In this document: positions 9,899-19,666 of the stretch, one piece after another
How the letters are laid out: every line of letters begins with the position of its first letter
Position numbering within the stretch: the stretch's first letter is position 1
Program-made: the position numbers and the translations under genes
Source of the DNA: Candidatus Methanoperedens sp.
Lineage (GTDB): Archaea > Halobacteriota > Methanosarcinia > Methanosarcinales > Methanoperedenaceae
Assembly: GCA_027460535.1 (NCBI GenBank)
Contig: JAPZAR010000025.1
Coordinates: 60,001 to 92,000, forward strand
Length of the DNA stretch: 32,000 nucleotides
Direction of reading: 5' to 3'
The notes under the pieces: generated by a model
The model's database searches: none
The model's input: only the letters and a program-made list of their open reading frames with translations
What the model was told of the DNA's origin: nothing

Positions 9899-12481
9899 TC
9901 AACCTAAATCAAGAGTCAATGTATGGCCCTCAAGAACATCCAGTTCACTGACTCCTATTTGTTTTGACACATTGCCTGTTGTCAATGTATATGGACCGGT
10001 AGGTTGGGTATCAAACTGAGTGTCTCCTTTATCCCCCGGGAAAAAGCAGCCAGTACATTCAAAACTTCCGGAGATCATGTCCTTTGTCGAATATGGGACT
10101 GTAAAGGCGTATGTGCCATTGGACGATGTCGTTTGTGAATATTGAATTGTTCTTCCTATATTGGTCTTTATGGTATTTGTCAGGGTAATCGTTGTATCAG
10201 GGGGTGCCCTTCCTGTGATTATCGCACCTTTGACATATTCAAATATCTTGGCATACCCTGAATTCTCTACAGGTATATTGCCCTTGTATAAGAGATTATA
10301 CATGTTCTTATATTGTGCTTCCTGATTCCCTCCTGAAGAATACGGGTTGGGTGTGGATTCGTGCACCAGCCGGTAATGGCTTAAACCATTTGTATCAAAT
10401 ATGTGGAGTTTAGCTTCCATCGTGTTGAAATATTTCATCGAGGGGGCGTATATGGTGCCCTGGGACGATTGAACTGGTATATAGTAATCCTGATCTGTAT
10501 TATCCCATTCCGCAAAAACGGTGAGGATCGCATATGCCATATAGGCATTGCTCACCACATATCTCGCTCCTGGCTCTCCGTTGATTCCCAGTTTGTCAAG
10601 GACTTCATTTGCTTTTTCTTCGGTAGGTGCAATCAAAAAAGTAGATGCTCCGGGATTGTGTGCTGATCCGCCACCGATTCCTGCCTGGAATGGGTTTGCG
10701 TTCGGGATCCTGTGTGCCCAGTACGTGATGATATGTCCATAATCCCACCAGCTCATGACCCCGTAATCGTTGCTGGAATAATTATATAGCTGGCTGTCAG
10801 GCGGTCGGGTGTAAATCGAATTATAGGGCAGATCGGGCGCTGGCGTATTATATCTCATCCAGTTAAGCGCATCATACCATTCATAATATCCGGAGGAAAC
10901 GGCTCCCCACTGGGAAGTTTGCATAGTGACCTCATATGGAGAAGATCCCAGAGGCAGGAATCCGATCACTGCAATGATAATAAATAAAGATAAAATATGC
11001 TGTATCCTTATTTTTTTCAAGCCTTCTATAACGTCGTTCGTGCCGAAGTTTTTCCAGTCACCAAAGTCAAGGACTTTCGACCCTATGAAACCTAAAAGTA
11101 TCGCAACATTCACCGCATAATAGTATGCAAATCTGTTCTGAGCCAGCATTATGGACAGGACGAAAATACTCCAGACAGCCAATAATGTGTGCTCGGCCCT
11201 GGAATTCCTGAATATATAATAGCAAAGGGCCAGAATTGCAAAATATGAGAGATAATAATTATAACCGAAATTTCCCTGCGCCATTTCCGGCGTCAAGGGC
11301 GAAGCTTCTGCTATAGTCAATCCCCCACCGGCTCTTCCTTGAAATATAAAATTCAGGCTGCCTATCGTAGAACCATAAAGATTCGGCAGAAATATTTTTG
11401 TAAAAATTATTAAAATTAGAATCAGGCCAATAACAAATACTAAATAATTCAGTCCGCTATATTCCCGTTTGTTCATTTCCCTGGAAACAAGACTCAAAAA
11501 GCCGAATATTAATGCACCTCCACCTGTTACTGTGAGATGCAAAAGAGAATAATGCCCTGAGTCAAATCCATTGCTCAATTCAACATACGGCAACACCATT
11601 ATCATTGCGACCAAATAAGCGATAATTCCAACAATACCAAGGTATTCTGTGGACCTCCCTTTGAAATGGTCAATAATATATTGAACAATAACAAAAATGC
11701 CAAAAACAACGGCAAAAAACACACCATTTGACCAGTTGAGAAGATATGCTCCGAAGGATATGCCGGCAAGAAGAGAATATAATATGGGTGTTTTAAGAGC
11801 CGCCCAGTCCTTTTTCAGCCAGTGGTCGAAAGTAATGTTCTCTGATTTTTTGATAGCGAATACGAAAAACATCATCATCAATGATAAATAGAAAACCTCG
11901 GCCACATGGTTATCAGTAAACCCAAGAACCGATCTTGAAAGCCATTGTCCGGGCAGTATTGCTATTAAAAAAGCTCCAAGCAGTCCTGCCTTTTCATCAA
12001 GTAGTTCCTTGCCTATGAAATATACCGGGAATACCGTGAGAGCGCCCAGCACAGCAGGAAAGAATGCGCCGACCGTATCGATAGTTGATTGAGGCGGCAT
12101 TCCTCCGTGCATGATGAGACCGGCCATGATGGCAAGAAAGGCTATCATTTGGTCAAATAGTGGGCCCCAGTGTAAATGAAACCCGTTTGGATAGTAAGTG
12201 AATGCATCATAAAAAATTCGATGCGGGAAGAACTGGATCGTGTTCTCCACGAGCCTCATATGGAAAACCGAATCGTCAGCGGCAAAACCCACTATCCCTC
12301 TCTGGAAAACAGTTTTTATGGGAGTTATCCCTCTTATATAAAATGAGAATAGGAATATCCCGAAGAGTATGACATAGGAAAGATGTTTTGCAGTGAACCT
12401 GCCACTCTCAATTATTTTTGTTTCGTTTCTTTTTTCAAGGGTTTTTTCCTTATACTTTTTGTTCGGTTTTGCTTTGGCCAA
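9899..12481 (-). CDS. aglB: Archaeal oligosaccharyltransferase AglB (STT3 family)
   Basis: 860 aa, about 13 TM helices, catalytic WWDYG motif (VMSWWDYGHIITYW). The only canonical start upstream of TM1 is TTG at 12481-12479, preceded by GAGGTG (12491-12486) at 4 nt. Confidence 0.93.
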   Translation of the reverse strand: MAKAKPNKKYKEKTLEKRNETKIIESGRFTAKHLSYVILFGIFLFSFYIRGITPIKTVFQRGIVGFAADDSVFHMRLVENTIQFFPHRIFYDAFTYYPNGFHLHWGPLFDQMIAFLAIMAGLIMHGGMPPQSTIDTVGAFFPAVLGALTVFPVYFIGKELLDEKAGLLGAFLIAILPGQWLSRSVLGFTDNHVAEVFYLSLMMMFFVFAIKKSENITFDHWLKKDWAALKTPILYSLLAGISFGAYLLNWSNGVFFAVVFGIFVIVQYIIDHFKGRSTEYLGIVGIIAYLVAMIMVLPYVELSNGFDSGHYSLLHLTVTGGGALIFGFLSLVSREMNKREYSGLNYLVFVIGLILILIIFTKIFLPNLYGSTIGSLNFIFQGRAGGGLTIAEASPLTPEMAQGNFGYNYYLSYFAILALCYYIFRNSRAEHTLLAVWSIFVLSIMLAQNRFAYYYAVNVAILLGFIGSKVLDFGDWKNFGTNDVIEGLKKIRIQHILSLFIIIAVIGFLPLGSSPYEVTMQTSQWGAVSSGYYEWYDALNWMRYNTPAPDLPYNSIYTRPPDSQLYNYSSNDYGVMSWWDYGHIITYWAHRIPNANPFQAGIGGGSAHNPGASTFLIAPTEEKANEVLDKLGINGEPGARYVVSNAYMAYAILTVFAEWDNTDQDYYIPVQSSQGTIYAPSMKYFNTMEAKLHIFDTNGLSHYRLVHESTPNPYSSGGNQEAQYKNMYNLLYKGNIPVENSGYAKIFEYVKGAIITGRAPPDTTITLTNTIKTNIGRTIQYSQTTSSNGTYAFTVPYSTKDMISGSFECTGCFFPGDKGDTQFDTQPTGPYTLTTGNVSKQIGVSELDVLEGHTLTLDLG

Positions 12482-13347: not shown

Positions 13348-15051
13348 TCAGTTTACACTCGCCATGACATCATAGCGGGTGATATAGAGGTACATCATAG
13401 TGGTATCTGAAGTCATTTCTGTGTAGTTCTGTAAGGCTTCATCATAGTGGATCGCCTGATTGTTCTTGAGTTTGAACTCCTTTCCGACTATTGCGCCAAA
13501 TACTTCCATATCATTCTCAAGCTCTATTTTAGAATACGGTGCCCATATAAAACCCCGGTAATCCACATTATTATGGATGGTTATATCCTGGGATGATGAA
13601 GTGATGACTTGGAATAGATATGATTTGTCATTGTTGGTGGGATTTATTAATGCATTATTATTTAAATCTAATTTCTCGTTCAGGTATATTCTTACATGAT
13701 AACTGCCTCTCACATTGATATTTGCATTATTTGACACTTTTAAATCGTGAGACTCAATCGCCATATTAACTGCACCTGAGGTTGTATCAAGTATCAGGAC
13801 ACTCTTGTCACCCAGATCAAATTTCTCGAGATAATAGTTTCCGGTGTAAATTACGCATTCAGGATTATTATCGCTATTTTTTTTCCAGTCAGAATTATTC
13901 GAGTATTTACCATCTAATGTTCTGTTCCCTGCATCCCTGAGACAAGTTGATGCAAGATTATTGTTTGTGGCTTGGTACTCATTTAACTTGCTCTGCACAA
14001 GGCTTGTTGTGCTCCCGAGACTTAATCCTTCCACAGGTCCATATTCCATTCCCAATACATCGACATAGTCAAAGCTATTGGCATAGGCATCTTTTGTTAT
14101 CGTGCCTTTCCCTGTAATATCGCCGTGGGTCATAGCATTCCCTTTCACAATTGCATGGTCATCCATTTTTATTTCAGCGGTTGCACGGATGCTTCCATTT
14201 TCGGATTTGCTGGAACTGTAAGGCCCTTTGGAGGAATTATAGCTGTCTGATATTGCATTATTTTTCATTTCTATCTTCTTTGAGGCAAGTGCCCCATAGA
14301 AAAAGTTGGTGACAACCGGCTGGGTTTGAAGAGACAAAACCACTTTTTTTTCATCCGGAACCTCTTTTACTGTTGCCAAAGTTATGCTCCTGAAATAATC
14401 TGCCCATCCATCATAATACTCACTCTTCAGAGTGATAGTAACCTGCGTTACGTTCTTAGAAAGGGGATTCGGGAAAGTGGCGTTTGGACATATTATCTGT
14501 GCCTCTCCTCTCTTCTCTACATTAAGGGTTGAAGTTCCCTTGCCCCCCGAAGAATAATTCCCAGTAATATTCACAATAGGAAAAGTCAGGGTGACTCCGT
14601 TATAATTAAACTCAGGTGGGGAGAGCATAACGCTTCCTGCCGGATATTTGCTCCAGACACCGCCTCCTTCGTATGCGACTTCTCTATCTCCATTCCTGTA
14701 GACTATTTTCCCCATGGGTATTGTTACTGGGATTATTGCGCCTGTGTCCATCTTGAATTCAATTAAGACATAGCTCTGCGCAGATGATGAATTAGGTTGA
14801 ATAGACACAGAACCTCCGCCCGGATTAACGTCAATGATCTGCCTCGGTGCTTCCCCCAATGCCACCCTGCTTACGCGTGAGTCCAGCATCGTATATGTCT
14901 GCTCCATATTTTGCACATTTGCCCTCTCCTCAAGTTGGTAGATCACAGGAACACCCACAAGTGTTATCATGGATATTCCTGTAACAGTTATGCCTAATAT
15001 GATGACATGGCCTACAACCTCTACTGCTGCCTTTTCCGATCCGGGGAACAT
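13348..15051 (-). CDS. Large type IV pilin-like protein (pilin-like 8) with a C-terminal beta-solenoid-like extension; candidate tip or adhesin subunit
   Basis: 567 aa. N-terminus MFPGSEKA|AVEVVGHVIILGITVTGISMITLV is a class III signal. The N-domain is paralogous to the upstream gene. The C-terminal roughly 300 aa are Asn/Ser/Gly-rich and end IWAPYSKIELENDMEVFGAIVGKEFKLKNNQAIHYDEAL. GGAGA SD; the ATG overlaps the upstream TAA by 1 nt. Confidence 0.8.
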   Translation of the reverse strand: MFPGSEKAAVEVVGHVIILGITVTGISMITLVGVPVIYQLEERANVQNMEQTYTMLDSRVSRVALGEAPRQIIDVNPGGGSVSIQPNSSSAQSYVLIEFKMDTGAIIPVTIPMGKIVYRNGDREVAYEGGGVWSKYPAGSVMLSPPEFNYNGVTLTFPIVNITGNYSSGGKGTSTLNVEKRGEAQIICPNATFPNPLSKNVTQVTITLKSEYYDGWADYFRSITLATVKEVPDEKKVVLSLQTQPVVTNFFYGALASKKIEMKNNAISDSYNSSKGPYSSSKSENGSIRATAEIKMDDHAIVKGNAMTHGDITGKGTITKDAYANSFDYVDVLGMEYGPVEGLSLGSTTSLVQSKLNEYQATNNNLASTCLRDAGNRTLDGKYSNNSDWKKNSDNNPECVIYTGNYYLEKFDLGDKSVLILDTTSGAVNMAIESHDLKVSNNANINVRGSYHVRIYLNEKLDLNNNALINPTNNDKSYLFQVITSSSQDITIHNNVDYRGFIWAPYSKIELENDMEVFGAIVGKEFKLKNNQAIHYDEALQNYTEMTSDTTMMYLYITRYDVMASVN

Positions 15052-15836
15052 TATTCAATCTCCGTTACCATATCAGTATTCAGTATATAGACATCCAGAT
15101 TTGGCGTGGCATTTAACCGGGCAGTATAAGGGCCTCCAATTTGAATATCCCATTTCATCGTGTTATTGAGGTAATTCCTCCATCCAGAAACATAATCTCC
15201 CGTGATAGTAATGGTAACGCTGCTCACATTGCTCCAAAAAGTGACACCGGGCTCCCCTTCTGCCCTGATCCTGCTCAAACCGTTGCCGCCAACACTGTAA
15301 TTTCCGTTTATCCTGACAACAGGTATGACAAGCTTATTGTTCTGTTTATTAATCATCGGCTTGTAAGCATTCAAAACAACGCCATTGGGATATTTTATCC
15401 AGACGCCGGTGCTTTCGTACGCAACAATAGTATCTCCTATGGAATTTTGGATGTTGCCCATCTGCTCGGAATACAGGGTTGTTTCTTCATTACCGGGTTT
15501 GGTCAAATTGTACCATGTCACATTGATTTTAATAGTACTTCCCCTTCCAACGCTCAGCCGCCCCCCATATAGCTTCAGTTCCAGCATCCTGGAAGGGGCC
15601 TGTCCGAGCGCAACCTTATTTAAGTTCTCACCCACTACAACAAAACTCTGCCTGGTATTTTCAACGTAACTGCTTTCCTGGGCATTTCTCAATACGGGAT
15701 ATCCAGCTACACCTATAATACTCAACGAAAGCAGAATGATCCCGGTGATCGATATGTAATCCAAAACCTCAGCTACTGCATCCTCCGACTTCAGGAAATA
15801 CTCGTTTTTGGATATATCTCTTGCTGATGGCATCAT
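15051..15836 (-). CDS. Type IV pilin-like protein (pilin-like 7), paralog of the N-domain of the 567-aa protein
   Basis: 261 aa. Class III signal KSEDA|VAEVLDYISITGIILLSLSIIGVAGY. Shared blocks with 13348-15051: KVALGQAPSR / RVALGEAPRQ and VAYESTGVWIKYPNG / VAYEGGGVWSKYPAG, plus the NGNYSVGG/TGNYSSGG regions. Confidence 0.8.
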   Translation of the reverse strand: MMPSARDISKNEYFLKSEDAVAEVLDYISITGIILLSLSIIGVAGYPVLRNAQESSYVENTRQSFVVVGENLNKVALGQAPSRMLELKLYGGRLSVGRGSTIKINVTWYNLTKPGNEETTLYSEQMGNIQNSIGDTIVAYESTGVWIKYPNGVVLNAYKPMINKQNNKLVIPVVRINGNYSVGGNGLSRIRAEGEPGVTFWSNVSSVTITITGDYVSGWRNYLNNTMKWDIQIGGPYTARLNATPNLDVYILNTDMVTEIE

Positions 15837-15874
15837 TCATCCAAAAATAATGGAACTCTCAGATCGTGCTTTTC

Positions 15875-16351
15875 CTATTGTTCCTCTATATTAATGCTAT
15901 CAGTGCTACTATTGTAGTAAAGTATATAATTTTCGGCACCACTGTATATTTTTCTTCCAATAAAATTCACAGATGTATTGAAAGGAATCACTACTTTAGC
16001 CCCGTTTTCCGCTTCAATGATTATCTCATAAGAAGAATTGGTTATATTCATCGCATAGCTTTTACCTGCTATCGATTGTGATACTGGAAACTCATATTCA
16101 AGTGAATTAACACTTCCACCATAGGATTTGGTCACATTGACCATGGTATCCATGTTAGTAATCTTGATGGCAAGCCCACTTCCTATTATCCTGAAGCTCT
16201 CCGTCATGGCAGACTTTTCAGTACGCTGTGAAAGGGTGTAGAAAGAGATAATAAGTGCAGAAAATATCAAGACAGTAATTGCAAGCATAAGCATGAAACC
16301 AATTGAAATTGATACGGCATCATTATTTTTAAGAATCTTCCTAAATATCAT
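15875..16351 (-). CDS. Type IV pilin-like protein (pilin-like 6)
   Basis: 158 aa. MIFRKILKNNDA|VSISIGFMLMLAITVLIFSALII. GGTGA SD 4 nt upstream of the ATG. Confidence 0.8.
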   Translation of the reverse strand: MIFRKILKNNDAVSISIGFMLMLAITVLIFSALIISFYTLSQRTEKSAMTESFRIIGSGLAIKITNMDTMVNVTKSYGGSVNSLEYEFPVSQSIAGKSYAMNITNSSYEIIIEAENGAKVVIPFNTSVNFIGRKIYSGAENYILYYNSSTDSINIEEQ

Positions 16352-16355
16352 GACT

Positions 16356-17177
16356 TCACCACGGCACTGAAATTGGAATCGTAATATTGGCGCGTATTTT
16401 GCTTGTGGAAAGAATTACCGTGGCATTCAGAATATAATCGCGGGCTCTGGTGAAATTTCTGCCGTAAGAGGTATTGCCTATGATTTTGAACCTGCCCCCG
16501 GCGTTCGAGCCATTCAAGAACGTGATCCTGGTAATATTGGCACCAACATTTGTAGTGAAGTTGTATGAACCATTTAGTAGACTGATATTGGAATAATTCA
16601 CGCCATAGTAACGGACAAAGCCGCTTGCATTTTTTATGCTTATATTGTTGGGAGAATTCAATTTCATGGACCATAGAAATACGCTTGTTGATTGATTGCT
16701 TACATTCACCTCGAAATATGAACCTGAAACATTTCTTAATTCAAATACATATATTCCTCTGGCGCTCTCCATTATGGTCCAGTTTGTCGCGCCGCTCGCA
16801 GTCCCATTATCTGTGAAATTGGCAAGGCGACTATTATTCCAATTGCTTATATCCTGGCTTAAGTTTACGATCTCCCCGTGAAGCACATAACTCTTTTGCA
16901 GGTTTGCACTGAAATTTCGGATTTGATTACTGAAATTCATCTGGCTATCATTTCCCCCTAATTCGGTTGCATTTCTGTATGCGCTTCTTACCCCATCTTT
17001 TGAAACAATCATCAGATTTACCATATCGTTCTTTGAAAACTCATTTCCTGCTCCAATTGCCATGTTGAACTCGAATATGACACTGCCGAGCATCACCGTG
17101 GTTATAACCAGGCCAATAGCTATGATGAAAGACGCCAGAAGCATGAATTGGGCATCGCGGTTTTCTATTATCCCCAT
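16356..17177 (-). CDS. Type IV pilin-like protein (pilin-like 5), hyper-rich in N-glycosylation sequons
   Basis: MGIIENRDA|QFMLLASFIIAIGLVITTVML. GGAGGA at 17187-17182 favours ATG 17177 over the ORF-track ATG 17189. I count about 24 N-x-S/T sequons by hand. Confidence 0.8.
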   Translation of the reverse strand: MGIIENRDAQFMLLASFIIAIGLVITTVMLGSVIFEFNMAIGAGNEFSKNDMVNLMIVSKDGVRSAYRNATELGGNDSQMNFSNQIRNFSANLQKSYVLHGEIVNLSQDISNWNNSRLANFTDNGTASGATNWTIMESARGIYVFELRNVSGSYFEVNVSNQSTSVFLWSMKLNSPNNISIKNASGFVRYYGVNYSNISLLNGSYNFTTNVGANITRITFLNGSNAGGRFKIIGNTSYGRNFTRARDYILNATVILSTSKIRANITIPISVPW

Positions 17178-17770
17178 CACGTCCTCCATAGAAAAAGCCT
17201 GATATCCACTATATTTTTAAGATTGGTGGAGGGATCAATATCCTTTATCGGATTGGCAGGATTAAAAACATCACTGTTGTGCAATACGATTTTCCTGGAT
17301 ACTATTACAACGTTATTCGATGGGACACCTGCGTATATCCATTCTTCCGGGGCCGATGATACTGTAATGTTATCTGAAATAAAGAGAGAAGAGATCTCCA
17401 CCTTGTGGGCTATGCCCTGCCTGCCTAACGTCGCGCTCAAGATCCCTGTCAGGTTATTTACAAGGCTGGTTGCATTACGTGGATCGTTGGTATTTTCCAA
17501 ATACTTTGTACCATTCCACACATATTGCTCTCCAGTCCAATTTAAGATATCATTTTTGAGATTTGAATTATACCCAGGCTCTGTATAATCCAGCGTGTTC
17601 AAAATATCCTGGCCCATTACTGCAAGCTCAGTGTCCATATGCACATTTGAGGTTGACGAGGTCAGAGGCGTCATCGAGGTCGCATCTATTGCATATATAA
17701 TTACCATAAGCAGGAGCGTTGTGGCAACCACTCCCTCGAGTGTATGCATCTGGGCTTTTTCATCTAACAT
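17177..17770 (-). CDS. Type IV pilin-like protein (pilin-like 4)
   Basis: MLDEKA|QMHTLEGVVATTLLLMVIIYAI. A GAGG SD favours ATG 17770 (1-nt overlap, TAATG, with the upstream stop) over 17776. Confidence 0.8.
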   Translation of the reverse strand: MLDEKAQMHTLEGVVATTLLLMVIIYAIDATSMTPLTSSTSNVHMDTELAVMGQDILNTLDYTEPGYNSNLKNDILNWTGEQYVWNGTKYLENTNDPRNATSLVNNLTGILSATLGRQGIAHKVEISSLFISDNITVSSAPEEWIYAGVPSNNVVIVSRKIVLHNSDVFNPANPIKDIDPSTNLKNIVDIRLFLWRT

Positions 17771-18375
17771 TACCATACCCTCACTGAAATGATAGCTGAT
17801 TCATTATAGCCTGTGGATGAATTTACGATTAAGACAAGCCTCTTGCTCTGGCCGATATTTATGTTTTCAGGAAGTTCTGGGCCACTCTGGTTCATTATAC
17901 TGCCATCAAGACGTGTTGCCGAGATATTCACATCAAAAATGATTTCATTGCTTAACAGTCCAAGTTCACCAAGTTCATTATTGTAATAGGTCTGGTTAGA
18001 ATGGTTCAACTTCATGTTATTGAAGTAATACAATTTGCCCTGGTCTATAATATTCATAGCCCCTGCTTTATCAGCAACCAGCAGTCGCTCCACCAGCACT
18101 GTGCTGACTCTGTCCGCAGCCAGTACAACTTCATCCGATCCCGACTGGAAAGGAATGAACAATCCATAAATGAACTGGAACACAAAGGCTACAGCAAGGA
18201 GAAAAATGCCCATGCCTGCGGCATAGTCAATCGTCATCTGGGCCTTATCATCTTTCACAGTGCCAATCTTGTTTTGGATTGTATTAAGATTAATGAACAA
18301 CAATTGCCGCCCATAGCATGGAAATAGACCAGAGCTCATATGTGAAAAATAATCTTTTAGCACCATTATACTCAT
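17770..18375 (-). CDS. Type IV pilin-like protein (pilin-like 3), start uncertain
   Basis: Class III-type motif KDDKA|QMTIDYAAGMGIFLLAVAFVFQFIYGL begins at residue 41 of the longest ORF. GTG at 18258 would give the typical short leader MKDDKA. No SD is seen for any candidate start (18375, 18366, 18339, 18258). Confidence 0.7.
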   Translation of the reverse strand: MSIMVLKDYFSHMSSGLFPCYGRQLLFINLNTIQNKIGTVKDDKAQMTIDYAAGMGIFLLAVAFVFQFIYGLFIPFQSGSDEVVLAADRVSTVLVERLLVADKAGAMNIIDQGKLYYFNNMKLNHSNQTYYNNELGELGLLSNEIIFDVNISATRLDGSIMNQSGPELPENINIGQSKRLVLIVNSSTGYNESAIISVRVW

Positions 18376-18426
18376 AATGATATGCTGCTATTACAAAAAC
18401 CTTCTGGCCTGATATAGCCGTTATAT

Positions 18427-18906
18427 TTATCTCACTTCGACCACCGTATCAAGCACCATGGTCTTGAAAGGATACAAAATTATTTTGACATCATACTTTT
18501 CACCCGATAACATAACCCCGGCTGTACCATCGGTATAGACCGAACGATTGGTAACGGTATAGTTTCCAGCGCCGCTGGTCAGATTGTAGGTTATTATCTG
18601 GTCTCCAGCCCTGAGGTCGCTTCCCGGATTTGAGATTTTATAAACAGGCGGCTCTCCGGCCGGAACGATGGATATCTGCCAGTCCGTTCCAACTAATCTA
18701 TCCCCGGCTTTGTGCTGTATCTTGATATCGATTCCAGTAGTATCAGTATCGCTCGAAACTACAATAGCAGCCGTAGGTCCTTTCTGGTCAGGTTTTCCCA
18801 TTCCAAATACGAACATTAAAACCAATGAAGCCAGCATTACGGTAACCGCCACCATCAAAATGACTCCTATGACAGGCGATACCGCCTCATCATTCCCTTT
18901 CTCCAT
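18427..18906 (-). CDS. Archaeal type IV pilin (DUF1628-type N-terminus), paralog 2
   Basis: 159 aa. MEKGNDEA|VSPVIGVILMVAVTVMLASLVLMFVFG. The C-terminus ...YDVKIILYPFKTMVLDTVVEVR parallels the upstream paralog. Confidence 0.88.
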   Translation of the reverse strand: MEKGNDEAVSPVIGVILMVAVTVMLASLVLMFVFGMGKPDQKGPTAAIVVSSDTDTTGIDIKIQHKAGDRLVGTDWQISIVPAGEPPVYKISNPGSDLRAGDQIITYNLTSGAGNYTVTNRSVYTDGTAGVMLSGEKYDVKIILYPFKTMVLDTVVEVR

Positions 18907-18916
18907 TCTCTATATC

Positions 18917-18961
18917 CTTAAAAAAAAATAAAAAATGCCCCTCAAAAAAAGTAAAAGGGGC
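18917..18961 (-). terminator. Hairpin plus long oligo-T tracts between the two pilin paralogs (internal operon terminator/attenuator)
   Basis: Minus-strand RNA reads GCCCCU-UUUACUUUUUUUG-AGGGGC (stem 18961-18956 / 18942-18937), followed by AUUUUUUAUUUUUUUUU. Confidence 0.6.
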
Positions 18962-18972
18962 TGGTATTTCAG

Positions 18973-19446
18973 TTACCTTACATCTACTACTGTATCAAGC
19001 AACATGGCATTGGACGGGATGTGAACTAATTTAACATCGTATTTGCCAACCAACATGGCGGTACCACCCATTACACTTTGGTTTGTTACAATAGGGGCTG
19101 AAGCATCTGTTGTCGTGTTAGCGATGATTTGACTTCCAACTGAAAATGTGCCCAATGATGAGTTTGAAGTCACAAATACAGGGGGATTGCCAGCAACGAC
19201 TACGGATAACTTCCAGTCCCCGCCTTTCAGTGTATCTCCGCCTTTGTGCTGTACCTTCAGATCAGGTGCTGTTGTATCAGGGTTGTTCGCTCCGGTTATA
19301 CTTGCTGTCGGCGCGGCTACCTGCTGGCCACCTAATCCGAACACGAATGCAGCTATCACGGCTGCCAATATCACAGTTATCGCCACCATGAGGATAACAC
19401 CTATGACAGGCGACACTGCATCTTCATTTCTTCTAAACATTTTCAT
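18973..19446 (-). CDS. Archaeal type IV pilin (DUF1628-type N-terminus), paralog 1; probable major subunit
   Basis: MKMFRRNEDA|VSPVIGVILMVAITVILAAVIAAFVFG. The longest ORF starts at 19461, but its first codons (ATGGAGGAT) contain GGAGGA 7 nt upstream of ATG 19446. The terminator immediately downstream suggests the highest expression in the operon. Confidence 0.88.
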   Translation of the reverse strand: MKMFRRNEDAVSPVIGVILMVAITVILAAVIAAFVFGLGGQQVAAPTASITGANNPDTTAPDLKVQHKGGDTLKGGDWKLSVVVAGNPPVFVTSNSSLGTFSVGSQIIANTTTDASAPIVTNQSVMGGTAMLVGKYDVKLVHIPSNAMLLDTVVDVR

Positions 19447-19462
19447 ATACATATCCTCCATT

Positions 19463-19666
19463 TTAAATTGCTTCTTTTTTACGTTTGACCACTTTTTCGA
19501 GCTTTTTAGCCCACATATCCTCTACCTGCGTATATTCGCAATCGAGGTAATGATGAACAGCTTTGGCGAGCGCGTCCTTAGTACTACTCTCACCCGTCTT
19601 TACTTTCAGGGCTTCGAGGTCGTCCACCACAAGAACTGTCTGCACATGCACAATCTTCGCCATCAT
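19463..19666 (-). CDS. Small ribbon-helix-helix-like protein, first gene of the pilin-like operon (putative regulator)
   Basis: 67 aa. VQTVLVVDDLEALKVKTGESSTKDALAKAVHHYL fits a strand-helix-helix (CopG/RHH) pattern. AGGAGA SD. Its stop abuts the pilin gene. Confidence 0.6.
   Translation of the reverse strand: MMAKIVHVQTVLVVDDLEALKVKTGESSTKDALAKAVHHYLDCEYTQVEDMWAKKLEKVVKRKKEAI

Follow-up and report, generated by a model that had tools for sequence, protein, structure and literature searches.

Two conserved pilin gene modules of Candidatus Methanoperedens and their probable place in a catalogued euryarchaeal type IV pilus

What do eight consecutive pilin-like genes belong to when no pilus motor is encoded beside them? 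This question is raised by a region of nine genes (g1 to g9, in transcription order) in a 32,000-nucleotide stretch of a Candidatus Methanoperedens sp. contig (JAPZAR010000025.1, positions 60,001 to 92,000), referred to hereafter as the window. An initial annotation, made from the letters of the sequence, had described the region as an orphan, translationally coupled operon of one ribbon-helix-helix (RHH)-like gene and eight type IV pilin-like genes. We find that it consists of two conserved modules lying side by side, namely, a DUF5371 gene with two PilA-type pilin genes (g1 to g3) and a six-gene cassette of accessory pilin-like genes (g4 to g9). Together, these modules likely represent the pilin complement of a euryarchaeal type IV pilus (T4P) known as clade 2 or system 2, with two PilA-type major subunits, six accessory pilins that would act as a tip complex, and a motor encoded elsewhere in the genome.

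Eight pilin-like proteins in two modules

Nine intact open reading frames (ORFs), all on the minus strand, fill positions 13348 to 19666 (Table 1). In all eight proteins encoded by g2 to g9, a short charged leader that ends in [D/E/K]-A precedes a hydrophobic stretch of 20 residues with a mean Kyte-Doolittle hydropathy of 1.4 to 2.7. For example, NEDA is followed by VSPVIGVILMVAITV in g2 and NDEA by VSPVIGVILMVAVTV in g3, while the N-terminus of g7 (DA followed by VSISIGF) is PilA-like. Of 568 unrelated ORFs in the comparison loci (numbered with the prefix L below), 59 carry a loose form of this signal motif, against eight genes in a row here, and the run of signals is therefore not a product of chance. 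The ORF read-out and hydropathy values agreed with the coordinates and leaders quoted in the initial annotation, and Pfam and NCBIfam models independently supported its assignment of a class III signal architecture to all eight proteins. Both g2 and g3 passed the curated cut-offs of Pilin_N and of the NCBIfam model TIGR02537 (5e-9 for the second of the two small pilins), g7 remained below (23.5 versus 25.2 bits), and g4 to g6, g8, and g9 matched haloarchaeal pilin-like DUF families rather than Pilin_N or TIGR02537. The motif is also kept within each family across the comparison loci, where the mature N-termini read Q-x-T-I-D-Y (g4), Q-M-H-T-L-E-G (g5), Q-F-M-L-L (g6), V-S-I-S-I-G-F (g7), V-S-E-V-V-D (g8), and V-S-E-V-V-G (g9). 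An acidic residue near the mature N-terminus is conserved in four of the six cassette families (D5 in DUF7287, E6 in DUF7288, E3 and D6 in g8, E3 in g9) and in neither g6, g7, nor the PilA-type pilins; these residues resemble Glu5 of bacterial pilins, which is not general in archaea.

Overlaps or small gaps (-1, -1, +4, +38, and -1 nt with the best-supported starts) join the six cassette genes (13348 to about 18258), which therefore form one unit. The stop/start overlaps recorded in the initial annotation (TAATG at 15051 and 17770, TGATG at 17177) are present, and most starts are preceded by GGAG, GGAGG, GAGG, or GGTGA at a distance of 5 to 9 nt. The true start of g4 is probably GTG 18258 with the leader MKDDKA, since it agrees with a 162-aa gene call and the ATG at 18375 would yield a leader of 44 residues. 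The proposed coupling of all nine genes did not hold, given that g4 is preceded by a gap of 51 to 168 nt, the 66 nt between g2 and g3 contain a GC hairpin and, after it, long T-runs, and the two modules occur separately in other Methanoperedens. Judged from its sequence, the g2/g3 tract is likely an archaeal terminator or attenuator acting after g2, and possibly contains a promoter for g3. A scan for sigma-70 promoters and bacterial terminators is uninformative for an archaeon, and its loop limit missed the hairpin after g2; Rfam and tRNA scans of the window returned nothing.

Table 1. Positions of the nine genes and of the tract between g2 and g3 in the window, with family matches (E-values).
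Feature	Coordinates	Strand	Support and remarks
g1, DUF5371 protein, 67 aa	19463..19666	-	Pfam DUF5371 4.8e-31; without signal peptide
g2, PilA-type pilin	18973..19461; likely start ATG 19446 after GGAGG	-	Pilin_N 8e-24, TIGR02537 7e-13
g2/g3 intergenic tract	18907..18972	-	GCCCC...GGGGC hairpin and long T-runs, read directly from the sequence
g3, second PilA-type pilin, paralogue of g2	18427..18906	-	Pilin_N 6e-20
g4, DUF7287 pilin-like, first cassette gene	17770..18375; probable start GTG 18258	-	DUF7287 3.6e-32
g5, DUF7288 pilin-like	17177..17776; probable start ATG 17770	-	DUF7288 1.4e-37
g6, pilin-like, weak DUF7261	16356..17189; probable start ATG 17177	-	DUF7261 0.023 only; family HMM
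g7, DUF7266 pilin, 158 aa	15875..16351	-	DUF7266 1.3e-6, Pilin_N 1e-4
g8, DUF7289 pilin-like, 261 aa	15051..15836	-	DUF7289 6e-20
g9, large pilin, 567 aa, DUF7289 and C-terminal DUF7305	13348..15051	-	DUF7289 2e-22, DUF7305 4e-33

The first module is recognizable in other genomes of the genus. Homologues of g1 are 76 to 93% identical across Methanoperedens, and a DUF5371 gene followed by one or two Pilin_N genes was found in the window, L073, L069/L070, and L075-77, the complete triad being free-standing in other Methanoperedens beside SecDF and PIN/MazE genes (L069, L070, L075-77). The two small pilins are paralogues, as had been proposed alongside six divergent larger pilin-like proteins, with 52% identity between g2 and g3. 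Over its N-terminal half, g2 shares 48% identity with a pilin that a haloarchaeal plasmid encodes upstream of pilB, and the hydrophobic domain of g2 and g3, VSPVIGVILMVAITVILAAVI, is identical to that of the same Pilin_N pilin; g2 is our predicted major subunit. The RHH label (CopG/Arc/MetJ) given to g1 could not be confirmed, DUF5371 being its sole Pfam match in the family scan, and searches of the PDB with phmmer and with a 42-sequence DUF5371 profile gave nothing significant. A second DUF5371 paralogue, free of pilin genes, is conserved beside tRNA-splicing endonuclease and SUI1 genes (L071/L072, L078), and the family is therefore not exclusively linked to pilins.

Methanoperedens performs extracellular electron transfer, and a conductive e-pilin was considered as an identity for g2 and g3. 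The aromatic content required of e-pilins is usually quoted as about 9% or more. Over the whole protein, F, W, Y, and H make up an unremarkable 6.2% of g2 and 6.9% of g3, which is too low, and the e-pilin reading was rejected. In another Methanoperedens genome, a 1135-aa protein with faint multihaem cytochrome matches and CarboxypepD_reg domains is encoded directly upstream of the free-standing DUF5371-pilin-pilin triad (L075:4001-7408).

The window's flanking genes are those named in the initial annotation, with pncB (nicotinate phosphoribosyltransferase, NAPRTase) and a phosphoribosyltransferase on one side and the small (swivel) subunit of AcnX and AglB on the other. Farther away, at about 23.9 to 24.5 kb of the window (L001:3403-3872), a small ParE-toxin gene and its upstream 72-aa partner lie between His_biosynth and 4-HFC-P synthase genes.

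The six-gene cassette and its motor across archaea

Scanning GTDB species representatives with a 10-sequence DUF7288 alignment yielded 59 loci, which belong to Methanoperedens, Methanosarcinaceae (Methanococcoides, Methanohalophilus, Methanomethylovorans, Methanolobus, and Methanosalsum), and Methanocella; the search pattern has no match to the window's own sequence, so that the species of the window, and perhaps some second copies, escaped it. Labeling of their ORFs with hidden Markov models (HMMs) derived from the window proteins showed the order g4-g5-g6-g7-g8-g9 to be unchanged in essentially all complete loci, and most of the 59 carry the six genes without the DUF5371-pilin triad. With the g6-family HMM, a homologue was found in the g6 position of nearly all loci, as well as on the haloarchaeal plasmid described below. 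The six accessory genes are thus an ancient colinear cassette.

The link to a motor came from haloarchaea. A tblastn search of plasmids with DUF7288 matched megaplasmids of Halobaculum halophilum and Haloferax mediterranei, on which the existing annotation lists a type IV pilin N-terminal protein, a type II/IV secretion ATPase, a type II secretion system (T2SS) F-family protein, and five "hypothetical" genes. On the Halobaculum plasmid, the Pfam order reads Pilin_N ... PilB (T2SSE with PilB3_N/C), PilC (T2SSF), DUF7287, DUF7288, a weak DUF7261, DUF7266, and DUF7289, and a DUF7289+DUF7308 gene comes last in convergent orientation on the opposite strand; pHME505 of Haloferax mediterranei has the same layout. 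HMMs built from the window's relatives match these plasmid genes one-to-one and in order, with g4 matching the gene that immediately follows pilC in Halobaculum.

Among euryarchaeal T4P of clade 2, this layout is that of a second type, exemplified by the PilB4 locus of Haloferax volcanii, which has its own pilin set including the 250- to 550-aa arCOG02911 (Makarova, Koonin & Albers 2016, Fig. 4B). In Archaeoglobus, the set comprises arCOG06117, 04652, 07777/06552, 03926, 02911, and 02911, followed by TadC (arCOG01808) in A. profundus and by a convergent gene of similar size in A. sulfaticallidus (Makarova et al. 2016, Table S4). The count, order, and sizes of the cassette genes agree with these rows, the arCOG identities being read from position. 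On this basis, g7 would stand at the place of arCOG03926, the "predicted major pilin" of this system (Makarova et al. 2016), and g8 would by position and size be an arCOG02911 protein. Traits of the arCOG02911 type fit both g8 and g9, as both are DUF7289 proteins (of 261 and 567 aa) and the head of g9 is all-beta. The region can accordingly no longer be called an orphan that fits no known pilus, since its six families map in order to the genes that follow haloarchaeal pilB-pilC and to a layout published in 2016.

The initial annotation was right that no ATPase, platform, or peptidase gene lies in the 32 kb, as T2SSE, T2SSF, and peptidase A24 genes were absent from the window and likewise from 52 kb of the contig. 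We searched for PilB and PilC with phmmer and tblastn, using haloarchaeal and Methanoperedens queries against 79 loci (1.12 Mb); the Walker A motif of PilB is here GGTASGKT, and the pattern G..G[SA]GK[TS] is invalid for this ATPase class. Matches were confined to the two haloarchaeal plasmids and a single contig (L025/L073), and 58 of 59 cassette loci of Methanoperedens, Methanosarcinaceae, and Methanocella had no pilB or pilC within up to 10 kb on each side. That contig, from Methanoperedens isolate SO_2017_SWC_14, encodes PilB (PilB3_N, T2SSE, PilB3_C), PilC, hisD, DUF5371, and Pilin_N in a block that is convergent with the cassette and at most 8 kb away, its PilB being 53% identical to Halobaculum PilB over 378 residues. 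Because L073 carries these genes, Methanoperedens possesses a matching motor, and one of its lineages has all three modules as neighbors. Toxin-antitoxin pairs lie between the cassette and the pilB-pilC block of L073.

In the window, no clade-2 VirB11/PilB ATPase or TadC/PilC platform is linked to the cassette, whereas such linkage exists in L065, L066, and L073. The initial annotation had considered that relatives might carry orthologous operons beside the ATPase and platform of an already characterized pilus. Such neighbors do exist in haloarchaea, Archaeoglobus, and L073; the pilus type concerned is catalogued and was never characterized experimentally. Assembly in trans is the rule in this lineage, where the cassette almost always lies away from pilB-pilC, and would by extension apply to the window genome, a sensible inference because no assembly genes are nearby. 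ATPase/TadC modules have been described as working with pilins encoded in trans and as evolving independently of pilin sets, with ATPase linkage frequent but not obligatory (Makarova et al. 2016), and cross-complementation in H. volcanii supports modules that serve pilins encoded in trans. In the published ATPase tree, a clade of Methanocella and Methanosarcinaceae is sister to an Archaeoglobus group, among whose members are two ATPases with GenInfo Identifier (GI) numbers that come immediately after those of the cassette-TadC block of A. profundus and A. sulfaticallidus. Methanococcoides burtonii has three clade-2 ATPases (Makarova et al. 2016, Table S3), and T4P assembly proteins were reported in all five Lake Cadagno Methanoperedens metagenome-assembled genomes (MAGs).

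The genomic surroundings of the cassette differ between groups. In about a dozen Methanoperedens species, it is placed between EF-2/EF-1alpha/rpS10 and convergent rpL11/NusG/SecE genes (L004, L012, L015, L016, L018, L019, L026, L028, L031, L033, L036, and L064). The A. fulgidus set adjoins rpL7Ae/rpS28e/rpL24e and TFIIE genes (Makarova et al. 2016, Table S4), so that the cassette is repeatedly tied to translation-gene clusters in these two groups. In Methanosarcinaceae, the genes for subunits A, B, and D of the A-type ATP synthase are closely followed by the cassette; genes of 578, 460, and 205 aa beside it were considered as ATPase and platform candidates and rejected, as they encode these three subunits. 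Between them and the cassette, immediately upstream of it and often abutting its first gene, is a coiled-coil protein of about 650 to 730 aa with the archaellum-type accessory domains FlaC_arch and Arch_fla_DE (ArlC/D/E-like), found in L039 (7385-9412), L037, L038, L046, L047, L042, and L054, and on the opposite strand in L040 and L045.

Variant forms of the cassette were also observed. The third and fourth genes are enlarged (about 552 and 500 to 600 aa, respectively) in L058, L060, L064, and the second cassette of L020. Two cassettes per genome occur as a divergent pair in L020 and as a tandem pair in Methanocella (L063), and L062 holds a partial extra copy. Three short contigs (L010, L022, L059) with Methanoperedens-like cassettes at 32 to 63% identity are filed under Bacteroidota, Ignavibacteria, and Anaerolineales MAGs, most likely through binning contamination. 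A literature search returned no paper mentioning DUF7287, DUF7288, DUF7289, DUF7305, DUF7266, or DUF5371.

What the pilins may build

The AlphaFold model of g9 (predicted local distance difference test score, pLDDT, 87) comprises a helix of 59 residues (6-64), a beta head (70-241), and a beta-solenoid (254-566). Its top Foldseek match was the Thermus competence pilin ComZ (6qvi; E 3e-4, template modeling [TM] score only 0.24-0.31), followed by beta-helices of ice-binding proteins (DUF3494; TM 0.44-0.50, target-normalized, at 6-12% identity). The N-terminal 220 residues of g9 are 34% identical to g8. Homologues of g9 exist in two forms, ending in either DUF7305 (about 567 aa) or DUF7308 (about 460 aa), an exchange that would be expected of a surface-exposed tip element, and by analogy g9 is a candidate tip adhesin or receptor. 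Two cysteines of its solenoid (C370 and C399) are conserved without exception in 47 homologues and may form a disulfide or a metal site. For g5, the model (pLDDT 81) shows a long N-terminal helix and a beta-sheet, and Q9 and E14 are invariant among 60 diverse homologues. N-X-S/T sequons occur at 1.8 to 8.7 per 100 aa in the eight pilin-like proteins versus 0.48 in the other proteins of the window (a 4- to 18-fold difference), with a maximum in g6 (24 sequons in 277 residues). The oligosaccharyltransferase gene aglB (9899-12481) lies on the cassette strand about 0.9 kb beyond g9, an adjacency found only in the window-type context.

In the assembly route that we favor, g2 to g9 would be inserted into the membrane, their leaders would be removed by a prepilin peptidase of the PibD/FlaK type, and the proteins would be heavily N-glycosylated, with AglB encoded close by. 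Assembly would then fall to a PilC platform and a PilB3/PilB4-like ATPase whose genes lie in another part of the genome, the PilA-type subunits forming the shaft. By analogy with bacterial minor pilins, the six accessory pilins would probably act as a priming or tip complex, and the beta-solenoid pilin g9, as for ComZ/PilY1, would probably sit at the distal end as an adhesive or receptor element.

Several points weigh against this interpretation. The system has not been seen to form a filament in any organism; PilB4-C4 of H. volcanii was reported to be expressed, with neither a function nor a filament, and the role of PilB4-type loci was still described as unestablished in 2025-2026. The 52 kb available from a single MAG contig contain no pilB, pilC, or prepilin peptidase gene of the window genome. 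The tip-complex role is argued by analogy only, the similarity between g9 and ComZ is probably one of beta-solenoid shape and not of common ancestry, and the g5 model gave only chance-level matches to ribosomal proteins when compared to the PDB with Foldseek. Moreover, Makarova et al. (2016) proposed arCOG03926, at the position of g7, as the dedicated major pilin of a PilA-independent system.

This last proposal is also the best-surviving alternative, in which the cassette builds its own filament with g7 as the major subunit, and the adjacent PilA genes belong to another pilus and came to lie beside it by rearrangement. In its favor, it is the model published by Makarova et al. (2016, Fig. 4B), g7 combines a small size (158 aa) with an N-terminus like that of PilA and a Pilin_N score, and the cassette and the DUF5371-PilA module are unlinked in most genomes. 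However, g7 lies in the middle of the operon and has neither a terminator nor strong signals of its own, which sets it apart from the usual highly expressed genes of major pilins. Its homologue reaches about 500 to 600 aa in L058, L060, and L064, which would be odd for a shaft subunit, and the locus is accompanied by Pilin_N genes in the window, in L073, and on each of the two haloarchaeal plasmids. We thus regard a PilA-independent filament as rather unlikely.

Another explanation holds that the cassette proteins form a short membrane-anchored pseudopilus or surface complex that serves, for instance, in secretion, in the anchoring of the S-layer, or in the capture of substrates; the T2SS pseudopilus and the Sulfolobus bindosome would be comparable structures. 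The absence of any visible filament attributed to PilB4-type loci would fit such a structure, only pilB3C3 giving visible pili in H. volcanii, and a 2026 preprint argues that type IV filament (TFF) machineries are platforms for functions other than filaments. Yet the six proteins contain no substrate-binding or enzymatic domain, a beta-solenoid pilin is more typical of adhesins, and the haloarchaeal cassette is linked to a PilB/PilC pair whose PilB3_N and PilB3_C domains are named after the ATPase of the adhesion pilus, PilB3, which makes this explanation quite improbable. Finally, a remnant whose pilins ceased to be assembled after loss of the ATPase and platform genes, for which their absence from 52 kb could be invoked, is hardly credible for nine intact ORFs with ribosome-binding sites, in a detached arrangement conserved over at least three orders with family-specific signal motifs kept and with relatives that retain a matching PilB/PilC.

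Within the favored reading of the region as the pilin complement of a clade-2 T4P, a more far-reaching idea can be put forward tentatively, by analogy with bacteria: the cassette may be a portable archaeal counterpart of the bacterial minor-pilin priming or tip complex, able to dock on PilB/PilC motors encoded anywhere, with the exchangeable DUF7305/DUF7308 end setting the binding target. If so, the targets in Methanoperedens could be partner cells, DNA, or mineral electron acceptors, and placement in rpS10/rpL11 and A-type ATP synthase operons would make the cassette a constitutive primer, its motors and major pilins being regulated separately.

Taken together, these results add a further member to a kind of pilus that was already catalogued computationally and do not overturn current views; the detached state is typical for the lineage, and assembly in trans was already proposed in 2016 (Makarova et al.). 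Their value for annotation is that nine "hypothetical" genes of an environmentally important methane oxidizer can be described as the probable pilin complement of a catalogued euryarchaeal pilus. Such a complement routinely lies apart from its motor and will be missed by tools that define pilus systems by gene clustering. The cassette is widespread and strictly colinear, its largest member has a swappable beta-solenoid, and the orthologous locus of Haloferax offers a tractable setting for the question of an archaeal tip complex.

Comparison with known systems

Bacterial minor-pilin complexes (GspH-I-J-K, FimU-PilV-W-X with PilY1, and Thermus ComZ-PilA2) resemble the region in having a compact operon of divergent pilin-like proteins beside a major pilin, one much larger, beta-solenoid member, and acidic residues near the mature N-terminus, which four of the six cassette proteins share. 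In contrast, there is no detectable sequence homology and the ComZ match is weak, so that a common role would be one of analogy, no archaeal tip complex having been demonstrated. The Epd pilus of Methanococcus maripaludis (clade 1) likewise needs several minor pilins for piliation and has its major pilin encoded elsewhere, but differs in its ATPase clade, its pilin families, its dedicated EppA peptidase, and the clustering of its genes with two pilC paralogues.

Closer parallels are found in haloarchaea. PilA1-6 of H. volcanii, which are assembled by PilB3-PilC3, belong to the same Pilin_N family as g2 and g3 and are also encoded apart from the ATPase and platform genes, whereas their globular domains are unrelated in sequence, and g2 and g3 are preceded by DUF5371, for which the homologue search returned proteins of Methanoperedens-type archaea. 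Compared to the clade-2 PilB4-type locus ("system 2" of the 2026 TFF preprint), the window's set, like nearly all those of Methanosarcinales, Methanocellales, and Methanoperedens, is detached from pilB-pilC, its last pilin carries DUF7305 instead of DUF7308, and a DUF5371-PilA-PilA module is joined upstream. Both nevertheless share DUF7287, DUF7288, DUF7261-like, DUF7266, and two DUF7289 proteins in the same order, a class III signal on each of them, a duplicated large pilin of the arCOG02911 type, and a PilA-type gene nearby.

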